Below are positions 59,640 through 63,501 of a DNA stretch of 64,000 nt, one piece after another. The notes below the pieces were generated by a model, which worked only from the letters and a program-made list of their open reading frames with translations, searched no databases and was not told the origin of the DNA. The stretch is from Gammaproteobacteria bacterium. GTDB taxonomy: Bacteria; Pseudomonadota; Gammaproteobacteria; Steroidobacterales; Foliamicaceae. Made by a program: the position numbers and the translations under genes. Where the stretch lies: assembly GCA_028285945.1 (NCBI GenBank), contig JAPYNE010000033.1:27964-91963 (forward strand), given 5' to 3'. Every line of letters begins with the position of its first letter. Position 1 is the first letter of the stretch.

Positions 59640-60182
59640 ATGACTCGCTTATGGCTGCTTCGCCACGCCAAGGCCGAGCCGTGTTCGGCGGATGATTTCG
59701 CCCGCGCGCTGGCGCCTCGCGGGCGGCGCAATGCGCCTGAAATGGGCCGCAAGCTGGCGGCGGCCGGATGCGCGCCCAAGCGGGTGCTGTGTTCGGCGGG
59801 ACGCCGGGCGGTGGAAACGATGTGCGGCGTGCTGCCGGCCTTGCCGGCGGACTTGCGCGTGGATGTTTTGCGCCCGCTCTACACCTTCAGCCCGCAAGCG
59901 GTGCTGGAGTGCCTTCGCCGGCTGCCGCCGGATGCGGGCGACCTGATGGTGGTGGGGCACAATCCCGCGCTGCAGGAGCTGGCGCTCCATTTGGCCGGAT
60001 CGGGCGAGCCGGATGCTTTTGCGGTCCTGCACGGGAAGTTTCCCACCTGCGCGGCGGCGGAGCTCGAGTTTCGGGCCGCTTCGCATGCCGCTGGCTGGGA
60101 AGAGGGCAGCGGGCGTCTGCGCCGGGTTCTGACGCCCCGGCCGCCCCGGCCTGGGCGGATGCCGCCGGAGGGAAAGCCATGA
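59640..60182 (+). CDS. sixA: SixA-type histidine-phosphatase-superfamily protein phosphatase
   Basis: LWLLRHAKAE (RHA catalytic motif), APRGRRNA and VVGHNPAL. 180 aa. The stop overlaps the next start (ATGA). Confidence 0.8.
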   Translation: MTRLWLLRHAKAEPCSADDFARALAPRGRRNAPEMGRKLAAAGCAPKRVLCSAGRRAVETMCGVLPALPADLRVDVLRPLYTFSPQAVLECLRRLPPDAGDLMVVGHNPALQELALHLAGSGEPDAFAVLHGKFPTCAAAELEFRAASHAAGWEEGSGRLRRVLTPRPPRPGRMPPEGKP

Positions 60183-60976
60183 GGAAGCAGTTGCCGGTCG
60201 AGTTCGTTTTCCAATTGTTCTCGCTGTTTCTCGCGGTGATTCTGGTGCATGCGATGTATGTGGCCTGGATCCGCCCGCAGGCCAGCGCCGTTTTAGAGGA
60301 GCAGCGCATCCGCCTTGAGCAGGACGCGGAATACGTGCCGGAACGATCCCTCTACGTGATCGTGCGCGACTTCGAGCAGGAGGCCTGCCTTATCCTGGCG
60401 CTCTGGGCGCTGGCGATCATGGGCTACAAGGCCCGCGGGGCCCTGCGCGAGCGTTCGCTGCTGCAACGGGACCTCCTGCCTTTGGCCGAGGGAATGCGGA
60501 TCCTGCCGGAAGACACCCGCGAGCATGCGCGGCAGCTGCGGGCGCTGCCGCCTGCGGAGCAGCGGCTGCTTCTTCCGCGCGTTCTGCTGAGCGCCTTGCA
60601 GCGGTTCGGAGCCACCGGAAAGGTGCAGGACGTGTCGTCCGCCACCCAGTCGCTGGTCAATGCCGAGGCGGAGCGGCTGGAATCCGAGCTGTCGATGATC
60701 CGGTACATCGCCTGGGCGATTCCGTCGATCGGCTTTATCGGAACGGTGCGCGGAATCGGCGAGGCGCTGGCGCTGGCCTACCGGGCCGTGGAAGGCGACA
60801 TCAGCGGCGTGACTGAAAGCCTGGGCGTGGCCTTCAATTCCACCTTCTTCGCCTTGCTCGTCAGCATCTTCATCATGTTTCTGGTTTATCAGCTTCAGTT
60901 GCTGCAGGAGCGCCTGGTGTTCGAAACGGCAGACTACTGCGACGAACGGCTGATCCGGCGCTTGCAGGGCGAGTAA
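60179..60976 (+). CDS. MotA/TolQ/ExbB-family proton-channel protein
   Basis: Four TM segments in 2+2 layout with a ~90-aa cytoplasmic insert. IAWAIPSIGFIGTVRGIGEAL and GVAFNSTFFALLVSIFIMFL match the ExbB/TolQ channel helices. Confidence 0.8.
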   Translation: MRKQLPVEFVFQLFSLFLAVILVHAMYVAWIRPQASAVLEEQRIRLEQDAEYVPERSLYVIVRDFEQEACLILALWALAIMGYKARGALRERSLLQRDLLPLAEGMRILPEDTREHARQLRALPPAEQRLLLPRVLLSALQRFGATGKVQDVSSATQSLVNAEAERLESELSMIRYIAWAIPSIGFIGTVRGIGEALALAYRAVEGDISGVTESLGVAFNSTFFALLVSIFIMFLVYQLQLLQERLVFETADYCDERLIRRLQGE

Positions 60977-60992
60977 ATTTTCGGCGGGCCGG

Positions 60993-62414
60993 ATGGCGCG
61001 GGTCGCCCTTGAGGTCAACGGCGCGGCGCTGATCGGCGCCACCGAAGGCGGCGTGCTGTTCAATGAGCCGGGAGTGGCTTTCGCGGAAAAGCGCCGGGTC
61101 CTGTTCGGCAAGCCGGCGGCGGACGCGGCGCGCCGCCACCCCGGACAGGGCTGCTGGAATTACTGGGATCTGCTTTCGGAAGCGCCGCTGTCCAGGCCGG
61201 CCGGGAATCTCCGCACTTTCGCGGATCTGGCGCATGCGCACCTGATCGAATTATGGGCCCGGCTGCGCGAGTCGGCAGAGGGTGTCGAAGGCATCATCCT
61301 GGTGGTTCCGGCCGGCGCCGGCGATGAGCGCCTGGCGCTGCTTCTCGGCATCGCGGAGGAGGCCGGCTTGCCGGTGGCCGGCCTGGTGGAGAGCGGCGTG
61401 GCCGCCGTGCGCGAAATCGCGTCCGGCAGTTCCTGCGTCCATATCGATGCCGACGGGGAACGCATTGTGGCGTCGCGGCTTGATCGGCGCGAGGGACGCA
61501 TTGGCTCGGAGGAGCTGCTCTTCAATGGCCGTCCCGGCCTTCGGCATCTACGCGCGGCGGCGGGCGCTTACGTGGCCGGACGCTTTGTGGCGGAGTCGCG
61601 CTTCGATCCTCTCGACCTGCCGGCAACGGAACAGCAGCTGGCCGAACAGCAGGACGGCTGGCTGCGCAGCCTGGTGGCGCAGGGCGAGCTGAAGGTTGAA
61701 CTGAGCGGGGCCGCTATTCCGGCTTTGGCCAGGCTGCGCCGGGATGAATTCATGGCGGCGATGGAGCGGCAGTTGGCGGCGCCGGCAAACCGGCTGCGCT
61801 CCTGGTGCGCCGGCCCCGGATCCGCGCCGGTTCGGCTTTCGGCGGCGCTGGCTGCCATGCCGGGCGTTCCCGAGGCGCTGGCGAGCCTGCTGCCCACGGG
61901 CGTTGAAGCATTGCCGCCGGGGGCCTCGGCCCTTGGGGCGCTGGCCCGGGTGCCGGCGCTGGAGGCCGGCAAGGACCGCTACGTGCTGCTCCGTTCCCTT
62001 GCGGCCAGTGATTCGCCGCAGGAATCGCCGGCCGGCGCCGGGCCGGATGATCCGGGCGTTTCAGGCGCTTCCGCGCCCGGGCGCGCGGGCGCGGTTCGAG
62101 CGGCACCCACGCCTACCCACCTGGTTCTTGGCGGGCGCGCCTGGCGCATTGACGAGCAGGGGCTGCGCCTAGGCTCCGCTCCGCAGCCGGGCGGCCCGGC
62201 CATCGCGCTGCCGCCGGAAGGCGGCGTTTCCCGCAACCACTGCACCGTGCTGCTGGAGAGCGGCCAGGCCTTGCTGCGCGATCACAGCCGTTACGGCACG
62301 CGCCTTAACGGCGCTCCGGTGGCGGAATCGGCGCCGCTGAGAGGAGGCGACAGGATTGGCATCGGTCCGTTGGAGTTTCTCGTGACCCGCGAGGTGGAAA
62401 GCGATGGCGCGTAG
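60993..62414 (+). CDS. Cytoplasmic protein: degenerate Hsp70/actin-like (ASKHA) N-domain (tentative) fused to a C-terminal FHA domain
   Basis: The C-terminal LVLGGRAWRI..GVSRNHCTVL..DHSRYGTRLNGAPV..GDRIGIG carries the FHA Arg/Ser/His/Asn set. IILVVPAGAGDERLALLLGIAEEAGLPVAGLVESGVAAV resembles the Hsp70 VITVPAYF..AG..EPTAAA segment. The N-terminal phosphate-1 motif is not conserved. Confidence 0.7.
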   Translation: MARVALEVNGAALIGATEGGVLFNEPGVAFAEKRRVLFGKPAADAARRHPGQGCWNYWDLLSEAPLSRPAGNLRTFADLAHAHLIELWARLRESAEGVEGIILVVPAGAGDERLALLLGIAEEAGLPVAGLVESGVAAVREIASGSSCVHIDADGERIVASRLDRREGRIGSEELLFNGRPGLRHLRAAAGAYVAGRFVAESRFDPLDLPATEQQLAEQQDGWLRSLVAQGELKVELSGAAIPALARLRRDEFMAAMERQLAAPANRLRSWCAGPGSAPVRLSAALAAMPGVPEALASLLPTGVEALPPGASALGALARVPALEAGKDRYVLLRSLAASDSPQESPAGAGPDDPGVSGASAPGRAGAVRAAPTPTHLVLGGRAWRIDEQGLRLGSAPQPGGPAIALPPEGGVSRNHCTVLLESGQALLRDHSRYGTRLNGAPVAESAPLRGGDRIGIGPLEFLVTREVESDGA

Positions 62415-63501
62415 GCCGCTTCATGTTTTCAGCATGTCGTTTCTCGACATCATCTCCTGCGGCTTCGGGGCCGTGGTGTTGTTTTTTGTGATTATCAATG
62501 CCCAGGTGCGCCTGCGCGCCGATGCTGACCGCATTGATCTTCTGAGCGAGACCACGCGGCTGGAGGACGAAGTGCTGGAAGGCCGCAAGGATCTGCTCCA
62601 GATTCGCGGAGAACGCGATGAGCTTGAAGACCGCCGCGCCCGCGCGGTGGAGGAGCTGCGCAGGCTGAGTGAACGGCTCGCCGCCCTGCTCGCGGAGCTA
62701 GCGGAATACGAGCGCTTGGGAACGCAGAGCCAGGAGTCGGTCGATAAGCTTCGCGCCGATGTGGACCGGCTTCGGAACAGGCAGCAGGCGCTCGAGGCGC
62801 GCATTGCCGAGTCGGAAGAGGGCACAGGGCGGCAGATCAGGCGATTCGAGGGCACCGGTTCGCGCCAGTACCTCACGGGCATGCAGATGGGCGGGGAGCG
62901 GGTGCTGATCCTAGTGGACGCTTCCGCCAGCATGCTGGGACGCACCTACATCGACGTGCTGCGCTTTAGGCTGATGGATGAAGCGTTGAAGCCGCGAGCC
63001 CCCAAGTGGCGCCAGGTGGTCAACTCGGTTGATTGGATCACCACGCGGCTCGGGCCGCAGCAGCGCTTCCAAGTCTATATCTACGGCGAGGGTTACCGCA
63101 GCATCCTCGACGACTCCGATGGGCAATGGCTGAGCGTTGCGGACGGAACGCGGGTTGGCGAAGCAGTCGCGGCGCTGCGCAATCACGCGCCGCAGGGCGG
63201 CACCAGCATGCATGCGGCAGTGCGGGCGATTCGTTCGCTCAAGCCATCGCCCGACAATGTTTACCTGTTGACCGACGGGCTGCCCACGCAAGGCGCCAAT
63301 CCGCCGTCGCGGGTCGGTTGGGTCGATCAGCGGGCCCGCTCGAGGCACTTTGACCGCGCGGTGCGCGACCTGCCGTCCGGCATTCCCATCAATGTGCTGT
63401 TCTATCCCCTCGACGGCGATCCGGCGGCGACCGGCTACTACTGGAGGATGGCTTCGCGCTCCCGCGGCTCGTTTGTCAGCGTTTCCCGCGACTGGCCCTG
63501 A
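62404..63501 (+). CDS. ExbD/TolR/MotB-type TM anchor / coiled-coil / von Willebrand factor A domain protein
   Basis: SFLDIISCGFGAVVLFFVII has a membrane-embedded Asp. This is followed by ~130 aa of charged heptad-like sequence. The vWA domain has MIDAS DASAS (62917-62931) and YLLTDGLP. The gene overlaps the previous one by 11 nt. Confidence 0.75.
   Translation: MARRPLHVFSMSFLDIISCGFGAVVLFFVIINAQVRLRADADRIDLLSETTRLEDEVLEGRKDLLQIRGERDELEDRRARAVEELRRLSERLAALLAELAEYERLGTQSQESVDKLRADVDRLRNRQQALEARIAESEEGTGRQIRRFEGTGSRQYLTGMQMGGERVLILVDASASMLGRTYIDVLRFRLMDEALKPRAPKWRQVVNSVDWITTRLGPQQRFQVYIYGEGYRSILDDSDGQWLSVADGTRVGEAVAALRNHAPQGGTSMHAAVRAIRSLKPSPDNVYLLTDGLPTQGANPPSRVGWVDQRARSRHFDRAVRDLPSGIPINVLFYPLDGDPAATGYYWRMASRSRGSFVSVSRDWP

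Follow-up and report, generated by a model that had tools for sequence, protein, structure and literature searches.

To our knowledge, the 5:2 ion-driven motors (MotAB, ExbBD, TolQR, GldLM and ZorAB) provide the only route by which energy passes from the inner membrane to the outer envelope of diderm bacteria, and every new family of such motors has so far exposed a new cellular process. Here we analyse a stretch of 64,000 nucleotides (the window) of contig JAPYNE010000033.1, from a gammaproteobacterium assigned to Candidatus Foliamicus / Foliamicales. Within it the genes at 60179-63501 encode a MotA-like protein (F), a forkhead-associated (FHA) protein (G) and a membrane-anchored von Willebrand factor A (vWA) domain protein (H). 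They are the distal genes of a nine-gene trans-envelope system that is conserved and chromosomal, and that ppx, ppk and sixA split in this genome. The cluster overall is probably a cell-envelope system in which a proton-driven MotA-like motor with a vWA-headed partner is controlled by a Ser/Thr kinase.

Several described systems resemble parts of this one. In AglRQS, the gliding motor of Myxococcus, AglQ and AglS are a heterologous pair of B-subunits. GldM is a dimeric, periplasm-spanning rotor on a MotA-like pentamer, and works with GldK/PorK, which has the fold of the formylglycine-generating enzyme (FGE)-sulfatase family. Literature searches on the domain combination found a single study, in which motors made of a TolQ-like protein and a 'transpore-helix vWA' (TPH-vWA) protein were predicted in silico (PMC12204202; Mol Biol Evol 2025, 'Origin and Evolution of Bacterial Periplasmic Force Transducers'). 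AlphaFold3 models in that study place the paired Asp helices of the vWA proteins inside a TolQ-like pentamer, with the Asp beside a ring of Thr. The vWA genes are described as 'predominantly' heterologous pairs, and are distributed over the Proteobacteria and the Planctomycetes-Verrucomicrobia-Chlamydiae (PVC) group.

The signalling components likewise have counterparts. TagQ is a lipoprotein, and TagR is an FGE-sulfatase-like protein. PpkA is a membrane Hanks-type kinase with a periplasmic vWA domain that depends on TagR for its activation and acts through Fha1 (PMC3224232, PMC3953482). In Agrobacterium tumefaciens the target of PpkA is the inner-membrane protein TssL, whose phosphothreonine is then bound by Fha (PMC3953482). 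In Sulfolobus the archaellum regulators ArnA (FHA) and ArnB (vWA) are co-encoded, controlled by Hanks kinases, cytoplasmic and in direct contact (PMC6509490).

A conserved nine-gene cluster

All coordinates refer to the 64-kb window, and the genes are lettered A to I after their order in the conserved cluster (Table 1). A first-pass annotation, made from the DNA sequence, had described four tightly packed genes on the same strand, i.e. a sixA-like gene followed by F, G and H. The list of open reading frames (ORFs) and the raw sequence agree with this throughout. The stop of sixA and the start of F overlap as ATGA (60179-60182), F and G are separated by 16 nt (60977-60992), and G and H overlap by 11 nt (62404-62414). 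The peptides that it quoted are all present, with IPSIGFIGTVRGIG and NSTFFALLVSIFIMFL in F, SFLDIISCGFGAVVLFFVII, DASAS and LLTDG in H, and LLRHA and GHNP in the sixA product. The functional unit is however bigger than these four genes, beginning at about 48233 and being interrupted by ppx, ppk and sixA.

In the conserved order two lipoproteins (A and B) are followed by a Hanks-type Ser/Thr kinase (C), protein D, a small secreted protein (E), F, G, H and a second vWA protein (I). Synteny was tabulated using tblastn over 86 loci, and gene lists were checked for relatives that are about 50% identical. Genes A and E have diverged too far to be picked up in this way, and both were recovered by clustering the flanking ORFs. 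About 75 of 80 species loci have retained the order B-C-D-(E)-F-G-H-I, spanning Gammaproteobacteria, Desulfobacterota, Myxococcota, Acidobacteriota, Kiritimatiellia and Spirochaetales, and F-G-H occur in that order in essentially all of the ~80. In the window A to E (48233-55809) are in the conserved order, and are followed by ppx and ppk on the opposite strand and then by sixA, F, G and H. The window contains a reduced and rearranged member of a large uncharacterized family. Within the Foliamicales purifying selection acts on F, G and H (dN/dS of 0.04-0.06, 0.25-0.28 and 0.09-0.11 respectively), so the reduced form is not decaying.

Relatives of H were found in at least 593 species loci in a scan of one genome per species. 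The carriers include Gammaproteobacteria (Woeseiaceae, Chromatiales, Steroidobacteraceae, Pseudomonadales and Thiotrichales), Desulfobacterales, Myxococcales, Vicinamibacteria, Kiritimatiellia and Spirochaetales, and marine-sediment Gammaproteobacteria and Desulfobacterota carry the system particularly often. A HMMER search of 1.84 billion representatives (at 50% identity) gave 1,439 clusters belonging to the H family at E<=0.001, and 222 at E<=1e-30. The relatives are nearly constant in length at ~365 aa and are labelled in the databases as "hypothetical", "VWA domain-containing" or "ChlD"; every cluster that was inspected came from metagenomes. The proteins of the nine-gene system are named by no Pfam or NCBIfam family, and A, B, E and I match no NCBIfam family. 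We note that one homologue of H (P0081) has a precomputed match to a newer Pfam family (PF27578), which may already describe the H family.

Table 1. Positions of the genes and other features in the 64-kb window
Feature	Position	Strand	Size, evidence or remark
Gene A, lipoprotein	48233-49171	+	lipobox LAAC; ORF and clustering of flanking ORFs
Gene B, lipoprotein of ~390-410 aa	49129-50373	+	ORF; no known domain
Gene C, Hanks-type Ser/Thr kinase	50419-52758	+	Pkinase, 127 bits
Gene D, FHA-like/transmembrane/PEGA/FGE-sulfatase	52979-55399	+	PEGA, 139 bits; FGE-sulfatase, 132 bits
Gene E, small secreted acidic protein	55396-55809	+	ORF; signal-like hydrophobic N-terminus
ppx	55862-57358	-	Ppx-GppA Pfam match in the related loci L005 and L006
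ppk	57365 to ~59554	-	PP_kinase Pfam match in L005 and L006
sixA-like gene	59640-60182	+	180 aa
Gene F, MotA-like	60179-60976	+	265 aa
Gene G, FHA protein	60993-62414	+	473 aa
Gene H, vWA-1	62404-63501	+	365 aa
Repeat-rich intergenic DNA	63514-63772	.	at the position of gene I in relatives
Copies of CGCGGGAGACGCATGAACCCATCCATGGGG	8489-8518, 24978-25007, 25168-25197, 28192-28221, 37683-37712, 52834-52863, 63580-63609		

The MotA-like protein F

F matches the Pfam family MotA_ExbB (PF01618) with 52.9 bits (cut-off 22.9) over residues 133-247, which cover the last two transmembrane helices, so that the description of this product as MotA/ExbB-like is confirmed. Matches to the TolQ and ExbB equivalog models are weak, falling far below their cut-offs, and F is therefore a divergent member of the family and not TolQ or ExbB itself. 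As to the MotA-type 2+2 layout of transmembrane helices, a Kyte-Doolittle scan picks out just two strongly hydrophobic segments (4-33 and 214-244); 66-84 and 172-195 are amphipathic as judged by eye.

Three residues of the channel are at least 98% conserved over 76 homologues, these being P182, T189 (in GTV; codon 60743-60745) and T222 (in NST; codon 60842-60844). The two Thr align onto the channel Thr of TolQ (GTV and T-containing helices of the solved TolQ structures). The corresponding Thr of TolQ and ExbB are channel-lining, facing the Asp of the partner protein. F is a putative pentameric stator A-subunit.

The vWA proteins H and I

H consists of a short Arg-rich cytoplasmic N-terminus, a transmembrane helix (residues 8-37), a periplasmic helix of ~106 residues that would measure ~16 nm if straight, a vWA domain with a metal ion-dependent adhesion site (MIDAS; residues 160-365) and a C-terminal DWP. 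The N-terminus reads MARR...SFLD15..., where the codon of D15 is at 62446-62448. Both H and its paralogue I start with a tail of ~10 residues rich in Arg and Lys, followed by (L/M)SFLD-x-(I/M)-x-CGFGA; thus I carries the N-terminal helix motif of H, including the Asp. Residues F13, L14, D15, C19 and G22 of H are invariant in 32 representatives of 28-50% identity that were picked without use of the motif pattern. D15 is located ~4 residues into the transmembrane helix, a placement like that in ExbD, TolR and MotB, for which the corresponding residues are D25, D23 and D32 respectively. The distribution of charge indicates that the N-termini of H and I are inside, and hence that the long helix and vWA domain are probably periplasmic.

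The AlphaFold2 model of H was calculated from the 32-sequence alignment with a predicted local distance difference test (pLDDT) score of 82. In it a single long helix (residues 8-139) leads into an alpha/beta domain, and in a Foldseek search the latter matched the vWA domains of CMG2/TEM8 with a TM-score of 0.62-0.64. Throughout the family the MIDAS residues D172, S174, S176, T267 and D291 are kept (the codons of D172 and D291 being 62917-62919 and 63274-63276). Although H scores below the cut-off of the Pfam family VWA_2 (20.4 against 27 bits), the fold and the conserved metal-site residues bear out the earlier assignment of a vWA domain with an intact MIDAS. H always ends in DWP-COOH; the W-P codons are at 63493-63498.

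Searches with the N-terminal helix of H found no relationship to the known B-subunits. The first 55 aa gave no ExbD match in Pfam even at E 10, and a 35-sequence profile of the helix matched no ExbD, TolR or MotB among 177,635 PDB sequences. The helix profile also scored negative against E. coli ExbD and TolR and gave no match to E. coli MotB, while a profile of full-length H against the PDB was swamped by coiled-coil matches. Homology of the N-terminus to ExbD/TolR is thus not demonstrable, and our claim is limited to a common layout. The periplasmic part has neither the ExbD/TolR fold nor an OmpA-like peptidoglycan-binding domain, as judged from the AlphaFold2 model and Foldseek. The proposed match to ExbD/TolR/MotB is confined to the layout and the invariant Asp, sequence homology going undetected. 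The role of H as a B-subunit rests on the layout, the invariant Asp and gene linkage, and we regard H as the putative B-subunit of F.

F and the Asp-helix/coiled-coil/vWA protein are an obligate conserved pair. No canonical exbD, tolR or motB gene is present in the cluster, nor was one found in the 64-kb window by tblastn. Together with the conserved linkage of F and H this upholds the stator-like pairing suggested by the first-pass annotation. That annotation missed gene I; H and I are both present in all lineages other than the Foliamicales.

The system shares with ExbBD, TolQR and MotAB (PomAB) an A-subunit of the MotA_ExbB family having the channel Pro and Thr, linkage of the two genes, and a partner with a short cytoplasmic N-terminus, a single transmembrane helix and an Asp ~4 residues into it. 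It differs in the long coiled coil and MIDAS vWA domain of H, which has no detectable similarity to ExbD, TolR or MotB, in the absence from the cluster of a third subunit of the TonB or TolA type, and in the predicted coupling to Ser/Thr phosphosignalling. We infer that it works like a motor of the MotAB/ExbBD/TolQR type, in which F can be placed in the MotA_ExbB family but H cannot be filed as ExbD, TolR or MotB.

As in the TPH-vWA motors (PMC12204202), a gene of the tolQ/MotA family is tightly linked to that of a membrane-anchored vWA protein with a conserved Asp, and neither tolR nor exbD is present. The phyletic range and the pairing of vWA genes agree too, and Kiritimatiellia are among the carriers found here. 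By contrast, only one vWA gene is present in the window, where an FHA gene separates it from the motor gene. However, the published pairs are only 'predominantly' heterologous, so membership is compatible with a single vWA gene. PMC12204202 makes no mention of a kinase, or of FHA, Hsp70-like, PEGA/FGE-sulfatase, lipoprotein and coiled-coil partners. The suggestion that this architecture was undescribed is outdated, as PMC12204202 had already predicted it in silico; the narrower wording of the first-pass annotation, which knew of no characterized motor family of this kind, continues to hold. What appears to be new here is the context of nine genes, the FHA protein with its Hsp70-like domain, the modular nature of the kinase/FHA layer and the constancy of the PEGA/FGE-sulfatase partner.

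The heterologous pair H and I recalls the B-subunits of AglRQS, and the presence of an FGE-sulfatase-fold partner recalls GldLM/PorLM with GldK/PorK, which function in gliding and type IX secretion; the best match of D is GldK (see below). However, H and I have no sequence relationship to AglQ/S or GldM, GldLM uses another pair of charged residues, and the cluster contains no gliding or type IX secretion genes.

In 19 of 20 loci of the Woeseiaceae type a gene for a 240-aa secreted protein is found 100-190 bp 3′ of vWA-2 (e.g. L016, 2442-3170); in the other it is ~2 kb away. This protein combines a glycine zipper and a coiled coil with a C-terminus of the OmpA-like peptidoglycan-binding kind. 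By analogy with MotB, which holds its peptidoglycan anchor in cis, it may supply such an anchor in trans. A Pterin_4a gene (pterin-4a-carbinolamine dehydratase) is near the 3′ side of vWA-2 in 27 loci (e.g. L001, 12179-12523), where the adjacency is probably lineage synteny and not functional.

The kinase C, FHA protein G and protein D

C has a kinase domain (residues 24-272), one transmembrane helix (~313-344), a periplasmic region resembling tetratricopeptide repeats (TPR) and, at its C-terminus, a beta domain. Its catalytic motifs, HxDxKxxN and DFG, are kept in 36 homologues. The first-pass annotation had noted this Hanks kinase 8 kb upstream; it is part of the conserved syntenic cluster in the relatives, and therefore belongs to the system.

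G lies between F and H in ~78 loci and is cytoplasmic. Its C-terminal FHA domain (PF00498; 36.9 bits, cut-off 20.7; residues ~373-466, nt 62109-62390) also matches the FHA domain of Rv0020c in the PDB. S413-R-x-H416 and N439-G440 are invariant. The domain and its position embedded in the motor pair had been recognized before, although it was called canonical and the canonical phosphothreonine-binding residues are kept only in part. The remainder of G had gone unseen. In the AlphaFold2 model (pLDDT 86) residues 1-340 adopt an actin fold like that of the Hsp70/DnaK nucleotide-binding domain (NBD), and 342-370 are a disordered linker. Foldseek matches residues 1-340 to DnaK/Hsp70 NBDs with E ~1e-14 and a TM-score of up to 0.74. 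The Gly-rich phosphate loops are unrecognizable (ALEVNGAAL, VHIDADGER), making ATPase activity doubtful.

D comprises a cytoplasmic FHA-like N-terminus, a transmembrane helix (148-180), and periplasmic PEGA repeats with a GldK/PorK-like FGE-sulfatase domain. A 14-sequence profile of the N-terminus matches the FHA domains of Ki-67 (E 4.7e-5) and Rv0020c (E 1.6e-3). The best NCBIfam match of the FGE domain is GldK, at 96.7 bits, far below the cut-off of 350. T114-x-P-P (window 53318-53329) is near-invariant and lies in the cytoplasmic linker between the FHA-like domain and the transmembrane helix, suggesting T114 as a candidate phospho-acceptor for kinase C. D is found in every variant of the cluster, including those without a kinase, and the first-pass annotation missed this PEGA/FGE-sulfatase partner.

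Two distant loci, L092 (H ~32% identical; 1175-13276) and L093 (~29%; 5328-12093), retain A, B, E, F, H and I together with altered forms of C and D. In both, the homologue of C has the transmembrane helix and TPR region but no kinase domain, and that of D begins at the transmembrane helix and lacks the FHA-like domain. G has a degenerate FHA domain in L092 and is absent from L093. At similar divergence (~30% identity) L095 is complete in its kinase and FHA domains. The presence or absence of the kinase domain thus goes with that of the two FHA modules, over an envelope core that stays constant. This co-variation supports the proposal that phosphothreonine signalling acts on the machine, while the persistence of the core in the kinase-less variants indicates that the machine does not need it. 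The control by phosphothreonine proposed in the first-pass annotation therefore remains in a restricted form, as a dispensable layer in which SixA has no part.

Around these variants, L092 has two additional genes downstream for lipoprotein-like proteins of 212 aa, and the cluster of L095 is flanked by an FHA-ABC transporter (Rv1747-like; 1-522) and a second large Hanks kinase (13023-16964) carrying Laminin_G, FGE-sulfatase and lectin domains.

The TagQRST-PpkA-Fha1-PppA pathway has a comparable set of parts. Its Hanks kinase spans the membrane, its FHA reader docks at an inner-membrane component that has been phosphorylated, and it too includes a vWA domain and an FGE-sulfatase-like partner in the periplasm, as well as lipoproteins. 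The precedent of PpkA, TssL and Fha in A. tumefaciens (PMC3953482) fits the logic of a kinase C that creates an FHA docking site. The present system differs in that the Asp-helix proteins, and not the kinase, bear the vWA domain, that a MotA-like channel is present, and that it includes neither a PP2C phosphatase nor type VI genes. ArnA and ArnB are similar in that FHA and vWA proteins are encoded together under Hanks kinases, and ArnB (8s05_A) is among the Foldseek matches of the vWA domain of H. However, the vWA domain of H is predicted to be periplasmic and the FHA domain cytoplasmic, so direct contact between them, as in ArnA-ArnB, is unlikely.

A possible mechanism

On balance we lean, though not strongly, towards an ion-driven motor formed by F and a vWA dimer and subject to a kinase-FHA control layer. 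The analysis establishes the domain identities, conserved residues, predicted topology, gene linkage and kinase/FHA co-variation, whereas the 5:2 stoichiometry, signalling direction, ligands and physiological output of the scheme are inferred. In this scheme F would form a pentameric ion channel around the Asp-bearing N-terminal helices of the vWA dimer. The latter would be an H-I heterodimer in most bacteria, and presumably an H2 homodimer in the Foliamicales where I has been lost. Proton flow past Asp15 and the two Thr rings would turn or pull the dimer, and the ~16-nm periplasmic coiled coil would carry the two MIDAS vWA heads toward the outer envelope. There they could bind a co-encoded acidic periplasmic ligand, for which the ...FPxDI C-terminus of E is a speculative candidate, with D, A or B as other possibilities.

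Kinase C would act as writer, phosphorylating a cytoplasmic site for which the linker T114 of D is a candidate, and reading would fall to G through its FHA domain and to D through its FHA-like N-terminus. Having read the mark, G might engage or release the motor by means of its Hsp70-like domain. In its most complete form this would be a new trans-envelope machine, in which a 5:2 MotA-like motor powered by the proton motive force has as rotor a heterodimeric vWA-tipped coiled coil. This rotor would contact a GldK-like FGE-sulfatase/PEGA scaffold and lipoproteins close to the outer membrane, and an added Hanks/FHA/Hsp70-like module would act on the motor as a clutch from the cytoplasmic side. 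We put forward this whole only as a tentative possibility.

A number of observations weigh against this mechanism. No profile ties the N-terminus of H to ExbD, TolR or MotB. In the FHA domain of G the usual Gly-Arg is replaced by GS and S-x-N-G-T by S-R-Y-G-T, and the FHA-like domain of D lacks the SxxH motif. Reading of phosphothreonine by these two domains is therefore plausible but not certain. The cluster has no conserved phosphatase, and no evident output or effector gene. The Foliamicales lack the second vWA protein, and one relative does not have the A-E half alongside. Lastly, the likeness to the exemplar from Idiomarina loihiensis (PMC12204202) is one of architecture only, and not a sequence comparison.

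Alternative explanations

The lack of an effector gene would be expected if the system were instead an envelope sensor. The vWA, TPR and FGE-sulfatase domains would sense a ligand or damage, F and the Asp helices would serve as an ion-gated or conformational relay, and the output would be the kinase-FHA signalling. Seven of the nine proteins of the cluster have large periplasmic parts, and the parts list mirrors the TagQRST-PpkA-Fha1 pathway that triggers type VI secretion. Yet the variants without the kinase and FHA modules retain the MotA-like, both vWA and the PEGA/FGE genes, the invariant Asp and Thr rings are hallmarks of energy-coupling 5:2 motors, and neither type VI secretion nor another obvious downstream target is linked. 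We therefore consider a sensor unlikely, though it fares best among the alternatives.

We find it improbable that H is a plain membrane-anchored periplasmic vWA protein of the BatA/BatB kind, F using an ExbD or TolR encoded elsewhere and the adjacency of the genes being regulatory only. This would account for the lack of profile similarity to ExbD, TolR and MotB, and it accords with the sub-threshold vWA Pfam scores of H. But an invariant polar Asp in the transmembrane helix of both paralogues, at 28-50% identity, would be unexpected for a passive anchor. Moreover F, G, H and I are adjacent across phyla, and the MoxR and DUF58 genes of Bat-type clusters are not present.

In the first-pass annotation the phosphothreonine-gated stator had the Hanks kinase as writer and the SixA-family phosphatase as its dedicated eraser. 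The overlap of the sixA stop with the start of F (in the window and L005) is in keeping with this, the RH and GHNP catalytic motifs are intact, and sixA is under purifying selection. The protein belongs to the histidine-phosphatase superfamily (His_Phos_1, 22.8 bits; cut-off 21.7), but the narrower family assignment is not borne out, since the score with the SixA equivalog TIGR00249 (46.5) is below its cut-off of 74.5. SixA-type enzymes are, in addition, phosphohistidine phosphatases. The synteny also speaks against an eraser. The gene is absent from the cluster in all ~75 loci outside the Foliamicales, it entered together with ppx-ppk, and in L006/L007 a HicB-like gene separates it from F. 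The nearest homologues outside the clade (45-47% identity) are in unrelated neighbourhoods containing neither ppk nor the system. We conclude that sixA is a lineage-specific neighbour and not a component of the system, and there is little to be said for the complete model with SixA as the eraser.

A Zorya-like anti-phage defence system on a MotAB-type motor is very improbable and we reject it: F has a weak ZorA match (PADLOC, E 0.046, 10.7 bits) and C resembles defence-associated kinases in PADLOC, but the former is marginal, the latter reflects the generic Pkinase domain only, PADLOC gives no other Zor matches and no ZorC/D-like or nuclease effector genes are present, H has no matches in 72,556 plasmids, and stable chromosomal synteny beside housekeeping genes extends across phyla.

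The reduced form in the Foliamicales

The ppx-ppk-sixA block is found in the cluster of Foliamicales loci only (the window, L005, L006/L007 and L011). The genes ppk and sixA are divergent and ~90 bp apart if ppk begins at an internal Met, as in relatives. A general tendency of sixA to travel with ppk is not supported by the outside homologues, which adjoin neither ppk nor the system; our claim goes no further than a lineage-specific position. Given the ATGA overlap, sixA and F are probably co-transcribed in this lineage. In L006/L007 the A-E half is not upstream.

The same loci are the only ones lacking gene I, and tblastn found no paralogue of I in the 64-kb window. The repeat-rich DNA 3′ of H includes tandem repeats of 22 bp (2.3 copies; 63514-63563) and 29 bp (4.4 copies; 63646-63772). 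A dispersed 30-bp element, CGCGGGAGACGCATGAACCCATCCATGGGG, occurs in seven copies in the 64 kb with no more than 3 mismatches and on both strands, where none is expected by chance. Two copies were placed relative to the genes and both are intergenic, one in the gap between C and D and the other just 3′ of H, within a larger palindromic unit resembling repetitive extragenic palindromes (REP) or miniature inverted-repeat transposable elements (MITE).

The lipoproteins A and B and the secreted protein E

A, the first gene of the cluster, encodes a protein in which a low-complexity linker rich in Gly and Ser is accompanied by a conserved motif at the C-terminus, QIREAA..DP.IREALWxEYRKH. It matches no Pfam or NCBIfam family; a homologue is immediately 5′ of B in at least 43 species loci. 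B is present in ~50 loci at 37-75% identity, and neither Pfam nor a profile search of the PDB gives a match. Its true start is probably the ATG at ~49192 (MLAGAAMLAAC).

E terminates in ...FPxDI-COOH (PWPTDI in the window) in 46 of 59 loci, and the DI motif is present in L092 and L093 too. This tail, or the DWP tail of H, could be a docking peptide, e.g. a ligand of the MIDAS.

Significance

The family is common, being present in at least 593 species genomes, yet it is entirely unstudied and has no curated annotation. If the mechanism that we favour is correct, it would be a motor with a metal-dependent adhesion domain at the end of its moving part. The motor would also be wired to eukaryote-like Ser/Thr signalling, and would be the first 5:2 motor controlled by Ser/Thr phosphorylation. 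The kinase-less variants and the one-vWA form of the Foliamicales provide natural comparisons for the role of each layer.

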